From Escherichia phage PhiNW-E1: a DNA stretch of 45,197 nucleotides. Every line of letters starts with the position of its first letter. Position 1 is the stretch's first letter. The translations under genes and the position numbers were made by a program. Location of the stretch: the sequence record PQ476011.1; one strand, 5' to 3'. The notes beneath the pieces are model-generated. The model was given only the letters and a program-made list of their open reading frames with translations. It had not been told where the DNA came from and ran no database searches. Of the stretch, positions 4,728 to 45,010 are shown piece after piece.

Positions 4728-4941
4728 GGTGCTTGAGGTGGTGGCAGGTCTTATTGGCCTGCTGCTTGCCGCTAAGAAGAAGAAGGAAGAGAAGGAGGTA
4801 CAAAGTGAGGCGAATCATGCTAGCGACAATCCTGCTGATTGGTTCGCTGATCACTTCAGGGTGTCAGACGGCGTTACCAGAGAATCCAAAGGTGAAACCT
4901 CTGAAGCCGACGCTTACGGCAGTCTACGAGGTGGACGATAG
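4720..4941 (+). CDS. Putative i-spanin-like protein (N-terminal TMD, GTG start)
   Basis: 73 aa; N-terminal hydrophobic segment then charged region; overlaps the embedded lipoprotein ORF in another frame as in Rz/Rz1 pairs; short for an Rz homolog. Confidence 0.3.
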   Translation: MNKVLEVVAGLIGLLLAAKKKKEEKEVQSEANHASDNPADWFADHFRVSDGVTRESKGETSEADAYGSLRGGR

Positions 4942-5014
4942 AGTCTGCTTCAGTAAACCTGACGCTACAAAATTGGGTCTGTACATTCTCTCGCTAGAAC
5001 GCGGATATAATTAA
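4817..5014 (+). CDS. Putative o-spanin-like lipoprotein
   Basis: 65 aa from ATG 4817 (RBS GAGG 4806-4809); signal peptide with lipobox LITSGC; proline-rich mature region. Confidence 0.45.
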   Translation: MLATILLIGSLITSGCQTALPENPKVKPLKPTLTAVYEVDDRVCFSKPDATKLGLYILSLERGYN

Positions 5015-5043
5015 TACATAGTTTTATGTATCAGTGTCTTACG

Positions 5044-5066
5044 ATTTACTGGACACTATAGAAGAG
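5044..5066 (+). promoter_or_regulatory. Phage RNAP promoter
   Basis: GATTTACTGGACACTATAGAAGAG; +1 G at 5061. Confidence 0.7.
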
Positions 5067-5145
5067 ATGAGATAGTGCCGTTCTTTTGAGCGGCCTATTA
5101 CTAGCCAATCTTCATAGGGAGGGTTGGGAAGTAATAGGAGAGTAT

Positions 5146-5481
5146 ATGGCTAAGTTAACTAAACCCAAGACAACGGGCTTACTACATAGAGATACTGTAC
5201 TAGCTAACTTATTAGATAATTTACTATCTAAAAGGCGTGTTACATTTGAAGGTGTAGCCCCAAGTGAAGATACTAAAATTGAGATAGAAGTACCTGTAAC
5301 AGGAGACTTAGATTCTTCGTGGGCATCAATTGTATCATTAAGTACACCTGCACTTTGTACAGCTTGGATCACTAAACTGTCAGATACTACTTTAGAGATT
5401 CATGTCTTTCATACAGCACAAGTAGAAATAGACATAGAGGTAGATGTTTACGTTCTAGGTAAGCACACTGTCAGTGCGTAA
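5146..5481 (+). CDS. Hypothetical 111-aa protein upstream of the tailspike
   Basis: RBS AGGAGAG 5137-5143 then ATG 5146; same position and size as the short ORF reported upstream of the endosialidase in K1E-type phages (from memory). Confidence 0.55.
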   Translation: MAKLTKPKTTGLLHRDTVLANLLDNLLSKRRVTFEGVAPSEDTKIEIEVPVTGDLDSSWASIVSLSTPALCTAWITKLSDTTLEIHVFHTAQVEIDIEVDVYVLGKHTVSA

Positions 5482-5548
5482 GCACTGCTTTTCGCGCAAC
5501 TTTTCTTAAAGGTTATCATGATGGTAGCCTTTCAGAAAAGGAGGTTAC

Positions 5549-7984
5549 ATGATTCAAAGACTAGGTTCTTCATTAGTTAAATTCAAGAGTAAAATAGCAG
5601 GTGCAATCTGGCGTAACTTGGATGACAAGCTCACCGAGGTTGTATCGCTTAAAGATTTTGGAGCCAAAGGTGATGGTAAGACAAACGACCAAGATGCAGT
5701 AAATGCAGCGATGGCTTCAGGTAAGAGAATTGACGGTGCTGGTGCTACTTACAAAGTATCATCTTTACCTGATATGGAGCGATTCTATAACACCCGCTTC
5801 GTATGGGAACGTTTAGCAGGTCAACCTCTTTACTATGTGAGTAAAGGTTTTATCAATGGTGAACTCTATAAAATCACGGATAACCCTTATTACAATGCTT
5901 GGCCTCAAGACAAGGCGTTTGTATATGAGAATGTGATATATGCACCCTACATGGGTAGCGACCGTCATGGTGTTAGTCGTCTGCATGTATCATGGGTTAA
6001 GTCTGGTGACGATGGTCAAACATGGTCTACTCCAGAGTGGCTAACTGATCTGCATCCAGATTACCCTACAGTGAACTATCATTGTATGAGTATGGGTGTA
6101 TGTCGCAACCGTCTGTTTGCCATGATTGAAACACGTACTTTAGCCAAGAACGCACTAACCAATTGTGCATTGTGGGATCGCCCTATGTCTCGTAGTCTGC
6201 ATCTTACTGGTGGTATCACTAAGGCTGCAAATCAGAAATATGCAACAATCCATGTACCTGATCACGGACTATTCGTGGGCGATTTTGTTAACTTCTCTAA
6301 TTCTGCGGTAACAGGTGTATCAGGTGATATGACTGTTGCAACGGTAATAGATAAGGACAACTTCACGGTTCTTACACCTAACCAGCAGACTTCAGATTTG
6401 AATAACGCTGGAAAGAGTTGGCACATGGGTACTTCTTTCCATAAGTCTCCATGGCGTAAGACAGATCTTGGTCTAATCCCTAGTGTCACAGAGGTGCATA
6501 GCTTTGCTACTATTGATAACAATGGCTTTGTTATGGGCTATCATCAAGGTGATGTAGCTCCACGAGAAGTTGGTCTTTTCTACTTCCCTGATGCTTTCAA
6601 TAGCCCATCTAATTATGTTCGTCGTCAGATACCAGCTGAGTATGAACCAGATGCGGCAGAGCCATGCATCAAGTACTATGACGGTGTATTATACCTTATC
6701 ACTCGTGGTACTCGTGGCGACCAACTAGGAAGCTCTTTGCATCGTAGTAGAGATATAGGTCAGACTTGGGAGTCACTTAGATTTCCACATAATGTTCATC
6801 ATACTACCTTACCTTTTGCTAAAGTAGGAGATGACCTTATTATGTTTGGTTCAGAACGTGCAGAAAATGAATGGGAAGCAGGTGCACCAGATGATCGTTA
6901 CAAGGCATCTTATCCTCGTACCTTCTATGCACGATTGAATGTAAACAATTGGAATGCAGATGATATTGAATGGGTTAACATCACAGACCAAATCTATCAA
7001 GGTGACATTGTGAACTCTAGTGTAGGTGTAGGTTCTGTTGTAGTTAAAGACAGCTACATTTACTATATCTTTGGTGGTGAAAACCATTTCAACCCAATGA
7101 CTTATGGTGACAACACAGATAAAGACCCATTTAAAGGTCATGGACACCCTACTGATATATACTGCTATAAGATGCAGATTGCAAATGACAATCGTGTATC
7201 TCGTAAGTTTACATATGGTGCAACTCCTGGTCAGGCTATACCTACTTTCATGGGTACTGATGGAATACGAAATATCCCTGCACCTTTGTATTTCTCAGAT
7301 AACATTGTTACAGAGGATACTAAAGTTGGACACTTAACACTTAAAGCAAGCACAAGTTCCAATATACGATCTGAAGTGCAGATGGAAGGTGAATATGGCT
7401 TTATTGGCAAGTCTGTTCCAAAGGACAACCCAACTGGTCAACGTTTGATTATTTGTGGTGGAGAAAAGACTTCGTCATCTTCAGGTGCACAGATAACTTT
7501 GCACGGCTCTAATTCAAGTAATGCTAAGCGTATCACTTATAACGGAAATGAGCACCTATTCCAAGGTGCACCAATCATGCCTGCTGTAGATAACCAGTTT
7601 GCTGCTGGTGGACCTAGTAACCGATTCACTACCATCTACATAGGTAGTGACCCTGTTACAACTTCAGATGCTGACCACAAGTACGGTATCTCTGGTATTA
7701 ATACCAAGGTGTTAAAGGCTTGGAGCGGGGTTGGTTTTAAACAGTATGGTTTGAATAGTGAAGCAGAGAGGAACCTTGATAGCATACACTTCGGTGTCTT
7801 GGCTCAGGATATTGTAGCTGCTTTTGAAGCTGAAGGGTTAGATGCCATTAAGTATGGAATTGTGTCCTTCGAAGAAGGTAGGTACGGTGTGAGATATAGT
7901 GAAGTTCTAATCCTAGAGGCTGCCTATACTCGCCATCGTCTTGATAAATTAGAGGAGATGCATGCCACTAATAAAATCAGTTAA
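5549..7984 (+). CDS. Tailspike, endo-N-acetylneuraminidase (endosialidase) type with C-terminal chaperone-like region
   Basis: 811 aa; RBS AAAAGGAGG; lacks a T7 gp17-like N-terminal adaptor domain; length and overall sequence recall the K1E/K1-5 endosialidase (from memory, unverified). Confidence 0.75.
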   Translation: MIQRLGSSLVKFKSKIAGAIWRNLDDKLTEVVSLKDFGAKGDGKTNDQDAVNAAMASGKRIDGAGATYKVSSLPDMERFYNTRFVWERLAGQPLYYVSKGFINGELYKITDNPYYNAWPQDKAFVYENVIYAPYMGSDRHGVSRLHVSWVKSGDDGQTWSTPEWLTDLHPDYPTVNYHCMSMGVCRNRLFAMIETRTLAKNALTNCALWDRPMSRSLHLTGGITKAANQKYATIHVPDHGLFVGDFVNFSNSAVTGVSGDMTVATVIDKDNFTVLTPNQQTSDLNNAGKSWHMGTSFHKSPWRKTDLGLIPSVTEVHSFATIDNNGFVMGYHQGDVAPREVGLFYFPDAFNSPSNYVRRQIPAEYEPDAAEPCIKYYDGVLYLITRGTRGDQLGSSLHRSRDIGQTWESLRFPHNVHHTTLPFAKVGDDLIMFGSERAENEWEAGAPDDRYKASYPRTFYARLNVNNWNADDIEWVNITDQIYQGDIVNSSVGVGSVVVKDSYIYYIFGGENHFNPMTYGDNTDKDPFKGHGHPTDIYCYKMQIANDNRVSRKFTYGATPGQAIPTFMGTDGIRNIPAPLYFSDNIVTEDTKVGHLTLKASTSSNIRSEVQMEGEYGFIGKSVPKDNPTGQRLIICGGEKTSSSSGAQITLHGSNSSNAKRITYNGNEHLFQGAPIMPAVDNQFAAGGPSNRFTTIYIGSDPVTTSDADHKYGISGINTKVLKAWSGVGFKQYGLNSEAERNLDSIHFGVLAQDIVAAFEAEGLDAIKYGIVSFEEGRYGVRYSEVLILEAAYTRHRLDKLEEMHATNKIS

Positions 7985-8113
7985 GCAATCTGCTGTACGC
8001 CAGAACACAGAAGAACTTATTCAATCAGGACGTGACCCTAAGCAGGCATACGCCATTGCCAAGGATGTACAACGTCGTGCCATGAAGAAACCTTCTGCAT
8101 CTTCTGCGTAAGC

Positions 8114-8961
8114 AGGTTAATATCTTAGTGTACACAAGGGCAGACTTAGGTTTGCTCTTAGTGTAATCCAAGGAGGTAACATGCAAGAGGAGAATTGGGA
8201 TGTGTAATGTTGGATATGGAGAAGGTTGAACCTTAGTGTTGTACAAGGATTAACCAAAGTAAAAATTTTGATATAGGCGTGTGTGAGGTGTCTCGCCCTC
8301 GCCCTCGCCGGATTTCCCCCATATGGGGCCGCGCTGCGGTTGGCTTGGGAATTGGGCTAGGCTGGTCCGTCTTCGACGGGTGGCCTAGGGCTTGCCGAAG
8401 TCTGCTCTTAGTGGCTGCACAAGGAGAACGCCTAGGAAGCGCTAGGGCACGCCTTAGTATTGGACAAGGTGATTGCCTTAGTGCAACCGCTTAGGGCTTA
8501 CACAGGCCGTTTTAGGGCCATTCCTGAGCATTTGACAGGGTGAGCGTGGGTTGGCTATCTGTTCGTTTCGCTCCACTACGTTACGCTACACTCACCGCGC
8601 TTGTGTACCTTAGGTTATTCCTTGATGGATAGCTTAGGTTAGCCTTAGTGGACTACCTTAGTTAAAGCCTTAGTGCTTAGCTTAGTATCAGCTTAGTAGT
8701 GTACCTTAGTCAGACTTAGTGTCTTCTCTTAGTGATTGCACATGCAAGCATGTAAGATGCCATTAGGTCGCGGTCGGTAGACCGCTAAAGAAAGAGAATA
8801 GTAATAAGATGCAGTAGGAGGAACACCAGAAACCTAGCCAACCTAGTCTATCCTAGCTCTGTATCTATTGCTTTCCTTAGTCTCACATGTTAGACAACCT
8901 ATGTTTATCTTAGTAGTTGTGACATGTATCACATAAATAATCTATCTTAGTGAAACTTAGT
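8114..8961. repeat. Array of about 25 CTTAGT-type short direct repeats in an ORF-poor region (presumed genome terminus / packaging region)
   Basis: Five longer units CTTAGTR-N4-6-CAAGG at 8114-8129, 8147-8163, 8232-8248, 8407-8424, 8458-8474; a GC-rich island at about 8285-8600 holds CTCGCC x3 (8292-8309) and palindrome CCCCCATATGGGG (8316-8328). Confidence 0.6.
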
Positions 8962-43800: not shown

Positions 43801-44048
43801 TTCTACCTTCTGAGTTAGTACAATCCCGTTATGAGGCTGGCTTTCAGACTAAGGGTTTGATAGACCAAATACCACTAGTAGGTGTTGGTCAAGATGCATA
43901 TCGTTTAGCAGATTCTATAACTAAATATGCAGAGGGTGATACAGAAGGTGTAGATGTGGCACGTAGGGCTTTACGCTTAGTGCCTCTAACTAATGTAATA
44001 GGAATCCAGAACGCATTGCGTTATGGCTTAGATGAACTGGAGGATTGA
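40851..44048 (+). CDS. Large internal virion (ejection) protein
   Basis: 1065 aa; RBS GGAGGA 40842-40847; size and position match the largest core protein of T7-group phages. Confidence 0.7.
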   Translation: MEQDIKTNWAGYVQSTPEPFSIEAAPVSAPTIRQRNELQEQVLEAKADADILGAVGAAFQNEWLAFGGKRWYDRATADFTPQPDFEIQPEQREALRFKYGTDMMQTITEGVRSEDELNFRIQNADEDLERNKRIAQAGWAGSVATIGAAVLDPVGWVASIPTGGAAKVGLVGRAVRGAIAAGVSNAAIESVLVQGDMTRDLDDIMVALGSGMAMGGVIGAVARGRATKLSEQGDDRAASVVRSADAGDRYVRAVADDSIGAMRVKGAEVLTEGAFDISSKGEDLLKTLQREGNAIDMTPRRWAGTMSALGTVVHSSQDASVRGLGARLFESPQGLGAQKASASLMQNINLNRLKSADMNRFNDGFDLWLKENNINPVAGHTNSHYVQQYNEKVWEAVRIGMDESTPKSIRMAAEGQQAMYREALALRKRSGEVGFENIKADDKYMPDIFDTMKARRQFDRIGKDIDKEDIIELFSRAYQNGARKIPKEVADEIARAQVNRVADATLTGQLSFEKAMSGQTKAEYEAIMRKAGLSDEEIEKMVEALDNKETRDNISNRAKMSLGLDVTQEYNGLRMRDFMNTNVEELTDNYMKEAAGGAALARQGFSTYQAALNAIDLVERNARNAAKGSKASLALDEEIRQMREGLRLIMGKSIDADPQAISTKMMRRGRDITGVLRLGQMGFAQLGELANFMGEFGVAATTMALGKQFRFTSKALRNGDGFFRDKNLAEVERMVGYIGEDNWLTTKGARPDEFGDVTTVRGMMAHFDQSMNSIRRAQTNLSLFRMAQGSLERMTNRQIALSFIDHLEGKKIIPQKKLEELGLTQEFMTNLQKHYDANSKGSGLLGFDTMPYAMGETLANAIRRKSGLIIQRNFIGDEGIWMNKALGKTFAQLKSFSLVSGEKQFGRGIRHDKIGLAKKTAYGFALGSIVYAAKAYVNSIGREDQDEYLEEKLSPKGLAFGAMGMMSTTAVFSLGGDFLGGLGVLPSELVQSRYEAGFQTKGLIDQIPLVGVGQDAYRLADSITKYAEGDTEGVDVARRALRLVPLTNVIGIQNALRYGLDELED

Positions 44049-45010
44049 TGAGTTATACTTTCACAGAACATATAGCCAACGGTACGCAAGTAACCTATCC
44101 CTTTAGATTTGCTGGCAGGGATAAAGGCTATCTTCGTGCCTCAGATGTGATAGTGGAATCTCTTCAAGGTAACACTTGGATTGAGGTTACATCTGGCTGG
44201 CAATTAACTGGTACGCATCAAATCACTTTTGATGTAGCACCTGTTGCAGGTTTGAAGTTCCGTATTCGAAGGGAAGTACAAAAGGAGTATCCATACGCTG
44301 AGTTTGACCGTGGTGTTACCTTGGATATGAAGTCTTTAAATGGTTCTTTCATTCATATACTGGAGATTACACAGGAGTTACTTGATGGGTTTTATCCAGA
44401 AGGATACTTCATTAAGCAGAATGTAAGCTGGGGCGGCAACAAGATTACTGACCTAGCTGATGGTGAGAATCCAAAAGATGCAGTAAATAAATCACAGCTA
44501 GATGCTATCGACAAGAAGCATACTGATTGGAACTCTGCACAAGATATAGAGATTGCTGGTATTAAGAGAGGAATGGTGTCTGGTGTATCTCATCGCACTA
44601 TTCCTTGGTATATGGTCGCCTCCGGTGGAGAGCAAATCATTCGACCACCTTACTCATTTGATGATGCTATGGTGTTTATAAACGGTGTATTCCAGCATGA
44701 ACTAGCAGGTGCAGTATCAGTGGGGTATAATGTTATAACCCTATCCGAGCCATTACAGGCTGGGGATGAAGTTTATGTGCTTATCGGTAGTCGCTTAACC
44801 CCACCTACAAGTGCGGATACTATCCTCTTTACACAAGCAGTGAGTGAAGGTACACAATCTATCGACATTGTAACGGCTTTCCAACGTCTTGATGTATACT
44901 TGGATGGCCTGTATCAACCTAATAATGCTTATGAAATCGTAGGGTCTACTATCACTTTCAGTGAGCCATTACCTGAGTGTGTCGTAAGTATGAAGCTACA
45001 ACTAGTGTAA
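44048..45010 (+). CDS. Tail fiber/tailspike adaptor protein (T7 gp17 N-terminal domain-like)
   Basis: 321 aa from ATG 44048 (RBS GGAGGA 44036-44041); N-terminus MSYTFTEHIANGTQVTYPF resembles the virion-attachment domain of T7-type fibers. Confidence 0.65.
   Translation: MSYTFTEHIANGTQVTYPFRFAGRDKGYLRASDVIVESLQGNTWIEVTSGWQLTGTHQITFDVAPVAGLKFRIRREVQKEYPYAEFDRGVTLDMKSLNGSFIHILEITQELLDGFYPEGYFIKQNVSWGGNKITDLADGENPKDAVNKSQLDAIDKKHTDWNSAQDIEIAGIKRGMVSGVSHRTIPWYMVASGGEQIIRPPYSFDDAMVFINGVFQHELAGAVSVGYNVITLSEPLQAGDEVYVLIGSRLTPPTSADTILFTQAVSEGTQSIDIVTAFQRLDVYLDGLYQPNNAYEIVGSTITFSEPLPECVVSMKLQLV

Follow-up and report, generated by a model that had tools for sequence, protein, structure and literature searches.

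Cryo-EM of phages K1E and K1-5 places the virion attachment of both spike proteins at the adaptor gp37, as reported second-hand in PMC6966330 and PMC6872550. Two short peptides are assigned to this attachment in PMC6872550 (citing Leiman 2007): the heptapeptide MAKLTKP, by which the position-1 protein docks, and the undecapeptide MIQRLGSSLVK, by which the position-2 spike docks on the adaptor. In K1-5, gene 46 encodes a 632-amino-acid K5 lyase and gene 47 an endosialidase, and the phage therefore infects both K1 and K5 strains. In K1E, gene 46 encodes a protein that reviews call ‘small and truncated’ (PMC6966330, PMC5380687); gp37 connects it to the virion, according to PMC6966330 (citing Leiman 2007). 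Its origin by truncation of the K5 lyase was proposed by Clarke et al. 2000, as reported in PMC5380687. Another known system is endoNF of phage K1F (1V0E, 3GVL, 3GW6), which shares with the spike described here the catalytic beta-propeller, the beta-barrel, the stalk and a C-terminal chaperone that can be released. For binding to the capsid, endoNF has a T7 gp17-like domain at its N terminus; in PhiNW-E1 this function has moved to the separate gp37, and the spike keeps only a short docking peptide.

A K1E-type receptor-binding cassette

The whole stretch of DNA that we analysed (the window; 45,197 nucleotides of Escherichia phage PhiNW-E1, PQ476011.1) is the genome of a K1E-like Vectrevirus, circularly permuted, with 95–98% nucleotide identity to K1E and relatives over 25 kb. 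The tailspike cassette corresponds in position to the right end of the genome and follows a phage promoter of its own, and the intergenic region between the two spike genes is conserved (synteny with K1E and K1-5; flank alignment). Its features and those associated with it are:

5044..5066, + strand: SP6/K1E-type phage RNA polymerase promoter ATTTACTGGACACTATAGAAGAG, upstream of the cassette, which it is expected to drive
5146..5481, + strand: gp46 homologue, 111 amino acids, 88% identical to K1E gp46
5472..5487, + strand: short hairpin CAGTGC-GTAA-GCACTG followed by CTTTT (sequence, centroid fold, K1-5 alignment)
5500..5540, + strand: larger of the two intergenic stem-loops; it lies immediately 5′ of the endosialidase ribosome-binding site and overlaps it
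5549..7984, + strand: endosialidase (endo-N-acetylneuraminidase) tailspike precursor gp47, 811 amino acids (Pfam, PDB, identity to K1E gp47)
7664..7981, + strand: predicted intramolecular chaperone domain of the endosialidase, residues 706–811 (Peptidase_S74 at 706–763; 3GW6 match)
7962..8111, + strand: gp48 homologue, 49 amino acids (ORF list; phrog_2423 at E 1e-23)
44048..45010, + strand: gp37 adaptor, 320 amino acids, 99% identical to K1E gp37

A first-pass annotation made from the sequence alone had named the promoter, the 111-amino-acid ORF, the 811-amino-acid spike and the adaptor, and had likened the arrangement to that of K1E-type phages. All of these elements are present where it had placed them, and the gene layout is exactly that of K1E. 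Genes 46 and 47 and the adaptor gene 37 of K1E (AM084415; X78310) agree with those of PhiNW-E1 in promoter, in the order of the genes, in the intergenic hairpins and in both docking peptides, and nucleotide identity to K1E over 4900–8200 is 97.5%. The differences from K1E are at strain level only: at the amino acid level the endosialidase is 97.7% identical and the adaptor 99%, and the most diverged part is gp46 (88%, 13 substitutions). PhiNW-E1 gp46 is nucleotide-identical to that of KAW1A4500 and the endosialidase is closest to that of Phi100-A, which indicates recombination between the two genes. In K1-5, the promoter and 5′ leader, the first 26 nucleotides of the position-1 gene and the intergenic region are the same as here; between these shared flanks, the 632-amino-acid K5 lyase takes the place of the 111-amino-acid gp46, in agreement with the expectation that a sister phage would carry a second tailspike at this site.

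Sequence identity, domains, key residues, promoter and gene order are established here, and we consider it very probable that 5044–7984 holds the receptor-binding cassette of a Vectrevirus of K1E type and that the cassette operates as set out below. Such a cassette has already been published; the one addition made here concerns gp46.

Endosialidase tailspike and adaptor

The best homologues of the 811-amino-acid protein, predicted at first pass to be an endosialidase, are indeed gp47 of K1E and K1-5 (97.7% and 97.8% amino acid identity) and the endoNF structures 1V0E and 3GVL, to which it aligns over its full length (E=0). An N-terminal docking undecapeptide (residues 1–11) is followed by an N-terminal extension (39–102; PF12218), the six-bladed sialidase beta-propeller (103–545; PF12217, E 1e-222) with an inserted beta-barrel (214–296; PF12195), a triple-beta-helix stalk (546–705; PF12219) and the intramolecular chaperone (706–811; PF13884 at 706–763). 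The matches to PF12218, PF12217, PF12195 and PF12219 are all far above cut-offs. The key and catalytic residues listed for endoNF (PMC12632334, PMC2955717), H350, K410, R549, E581, R596 and R647, correspond to H140, K200, R339, E371, R386 and R437 here and are all conserved. The same holds for stalk positions R632, S643 and Q648, mapped from endoNF, and for the chaperone cleavage site, at which T705|S706 and K711 align with T910|S911 and K916 of endoNF; every endoNF position that we mapped (catalytic, stalk or cleavage) is conserved. From this alignment, release of the chaperone by autocleavage between T705 and S706 is predicted; PMC4690869 describes this mechanism for K1F and presumes it for K1E.

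Nineteen substitutions separate the protein from K1E gp47, and the PK1A lineage has catalytically inactive endosialidase variants that bind polysialic acid. A spike that only binds, or that has altered specificity, with cleavage of polysialic acid lost and K1 specificity no longer implied, could be imagined on these grounds. However, the 19 substitutions leave every mapped catalytic, stalk and cleavage residue untouched, dN/dS is 0.07–0.2 across relatives, and only about six non-synonymous changes distinguish the protein from that of Phi100-A, a phage isolated with E. coli K1 as its host. We therefore regard loss of cleavage as very improbable.

The first-pass annotation had also stated that the spike lacks an N-terminal particle-binding domain and relies on a separate adaptor gene. 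Phage_T7_tail is absent from the spike, which aligns to phrog_1171 only from profile position 175 onwards. We refine this description in one respect: an attachment element is still present, as the first 11 residues are exactly the position-2 undecapeptide MIQRLGSSLVK. The adaptor gene lies at 44048–45010, and its product, annotated in K1E as ‘endosialidase adaptor protein’, contains the Phage_T7_tail N-terminal domain (PF03906) at residues 3–153 and matches the ‘tail adaptor protein’ of PDB 7Y22 (E 2e-84). By analogy with K1E and K1-5, gp37 would combine a T7 gp17-like tail-binding N-terminal domain with docking sites for two tailspike positions.

Enzymatic activity, cleavage, docking and host range can be projected from the near-identical, experimentally studied proteins of K1E and K1-5. 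The C-terminal chaperone domain would aid trimerisation of the 811-amino-acid endosialidase and then be cut off at T705/S706; the trimer would dock by its N-terminal undecapeptide on the separately encoded gp37, the T7 gp17-like N terminus of which would bind the tail. The spike would then bind and cleave the alpha-2,8-polysialic acid capsule of K1 strains, and the host would therefore be K1 E. coli. Hydrolysis of polysialic acid and K1-dependent infection are expected from the 97.7% identity to the characterised K1E enzyme and from the hosts recorded for the phages closest to PhiNW-E1, which are K1 strains (for example, O18ac:K1:H7 and ‘K1 LU_100’). K1 specificity is thus well supported. The cassette would mark the genome as K1-capsule-specific and of K1E type, which helps annotation and the selection of phages or depolymerases for therapy against E. 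coli that causes neonatal meningitis.

gp46 is conserved and under purifying selection

The short ORF ahead of the endosialidase begins with TTG at 5086 in the ORF list (5086–5481); the ATG at 5146 gives 111 amino acids, which is the length predicted at first pass and agrees with the annotation of K1E gp46. Residues 1–7 are exactly the heptapeptide MAKLTKP. A Pfam search of gp46 returned no family. In every pair with measurable divergence, dN/dS is 0.15–0.42. These pairs include a homologue that is only 58% identical and is also exactly 111 codons long; its lineage has a different second spike. gp46 also occurs upstream of a non-sialidase spike. gp46 is under purifying selection and is not decaying. 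It is also dispensable for growth in culture, because the laboratory mutant mutPK1A2, in which a 1-nucleotide deletion cuts gp46 to 46 amino acids, is viable.

Origin of gp46

The 111-amino-acid ORF had been described at first pass as a possible remnant or alternative of a second receptor-binding locus. This description holds in so far as gp46 consists of a tailspike docking N terminus and a tailspike C-terminal domain; derivation from the K5 lyase (past about 24 residues) and decay did not hold.

Under the truncation proposal, gp46 is the leftover 5′ end of the K5-lyase gene (kflA) after a K5-type ancestor lost the lyase, a non-functional relic that is merely transcribed. The viability of mutPK1A2 despite its frameshift fits such a relic. 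MAKLTKP and residues 8–24 are indeed common to gp46 and the K5 lyase (z 6.1; tblastn 37% over 64 amino acids), and the first 26 nucleotides of the two genes are identical. Beyond this point the likeness ends: in the native frame, residues 25–111 of gp46 score z −0.8 against the lyase, and the only other kflA signal is a tblastn match in an antisense frame, over the 5′ end that the two genes share. A weak alignment of residues 9–65 seen earlier (3/2000 shuffles) was carried by residues 8–24. Furthermore, the C-terminal domain of another tailspike family does match residues 25–111, and a relic is at odds with a dN/dS of 0.15–0.4 and with a length that stays at 111 codons even in the 58%-identical homologue, from a lineage whose second spike is different. 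We therefore reject an origin from the K5 lyase beyond residue ~24 (blastn, six-frame tblastn and shuffle statistics): gp46 is not a truncated K5 lyase, because residues 25–111 are without similarity to the lyase. On these comparisons a K5-lyase ancestor is largely refuted, and the relic as a whole is improbable.

The other family emerged from an exhaustive hmmsearch, in which residues 23–106 of gp46 match residues 405–490 of P0005 (E 1e-5), a protein of a metagenomic SP6/K1E-like phage (contig L015) that begins MSKLTKPTTTGILH and lies in the syntenic position-1 slot. Profile–profile alignment with hhalign pairs residues 22–105 of gp46 with the P0005-type C-terminal domain (93.8%, E 1.7e-7). 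In shuffle tests against P0005, both the N terminus (z 8.0) and the C terminus (z 11.7) of gp46 stand out, and MAFFT, unguided, splits gp46 on either side of the P0005 beta-helix. P0005 and its relatives P0007–P0012 have the same docking N terminus, the same slot and a homologous C-terminal domain of ~85 residues. The difference from gp46 is that in P0005 a pectate-lyase-like beta-helix of ~380 residues separates the two parts, and gp46 has none of it. In gp46, which is encoded in the same slot, the two P0005-homologous parts adjoin and leave no residue unexplained. We consider a shared origin of gp46 and the P0005-like tailspike C-terminal domain likely. Another protein, P0006 (676 amino acids, with Ig-like repeats), gave a profile match to gp46 at E 2e-5 in six stretches, which we regard as a summed repeat or compositional effect. 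For some 25 years gp46 has been written off as a lyase cut short; these data suggest a different tailspike family as its source.

Fold and possible role of gp46

An AlphaFold2 model of gp46 from five close homologues only was poor (pLDDT 58.7), and Foldseek of this model against the PDB returned nothing at E<0.4. It was replaced by a model built on a wider alignment (A4), a monomer of moderate confidence with a core pLDDT of ~90, in which residues ~22–107 form a putative lectin-like beta-sandwich. For comparison, H-type-lectin-like C-terminal domains of tailspikes and fibres (LKA1 gp49, AP22 gp54, KP32gp38, the R1 pyocin fibre foot) and Helix pomatia agglutinin have a sequence identity to gp46 of only 5–9%. 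In tailspikes such domains cap a beta-helix, whereas the domain of gp46 directly follows the docking peptide. As judged from the alignments, gp46 is in effect a tailspike without the catalytic beta-helix, in which MAKLTKP plus ~15 further residues, the docking peptide of position 1, are fused directly to a sandwich of ~85 residues.

What such a protein does is harder to say, and a real, fitness-relevant function is less certain than the common origin. With low confidence, and in distinction to the homology itself, we suggest that gp46 continues to attach to gp37, as a stub with no enzymatic activity in the first tailspike slot, where it may stabilise the adaptor or add weak carbohydrate binding. 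A fuller account, which we offer tentatively, is that gp46 is a maintained ‘mini-spike’ descended from a P0005-like position-1 tailspike that lost its entire catalytic beta-helix in frame and kept only the gp37-docking peptide and a lectin-like C-terminal knob. In Vectreviruses with a single specificity it would occupy the first adaptor site, whether or not the second spike is an endosialidase, for adaptor stability or weak carbohydrate binding. Alternatively, gp46 could itself be active in receptor binding, as a second protein of this kind: a trimeric lectin, docked at adaptor site 1, with a cell-surface sugar as its ligand and a part in initial adsorption. This seems unlikely: gp46 is dispensable in mutPK1A2, the model is a monomer of moderate confidence, and the C-terminal domains of many tailspikes have mainly a trimerisation role. 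A selectively maintained anchor-plus-knob protein that travels with other second spikes is what the data on gp46 suggest; if true, the mini-spike would be a natural minimal scaffold for docking at adaptor site 1, relevant to engineered dual-specificity SP6-like phages.

Promoter and intergenic elements

The 23-mer ATTTACTGGACACTATAGAAGAG occurs eight times in the window at ≤3 mismatches, always on the + strand, and in none of 100 shuffles, which bears out the promoter proposed at first pass for the cassette. Position 5044 is its exact first base, and 5044–5066 lies under a promoter annotation of the K1E record X78310 and is identical in K1-5. A scan of 4900–8400 for sigma-70 promoters and intrinsic terminators gave none above shuffle expectation. 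From the phage RNA polymerase promoter at 5044, gp46, the endosialidase gp47 and gp48 would be transcribed as a late unit; gp48 overlaps the last 23 nucleotides of the endosialidase gene, and K1-5 has a gene annotated as ‘48’ at the same position.

Between the spike genes, the hairpin at 5472–5487 spans the gp46 stop codon and is the start of the shared downstream flank. It is kept after the K5 lyase in K1-5, as seen in the alignment, and is annotated as a putative terminator in KAW1A4500. The RNA of 5455–5560 has a predicted folding energy of −31.8 kcal/mol (z −3.8), matched by 0 of 200 shuffles, and the region of the larger stem-loop (5500–5540) is conserved in K1-5 and 87.5% identical in L015.

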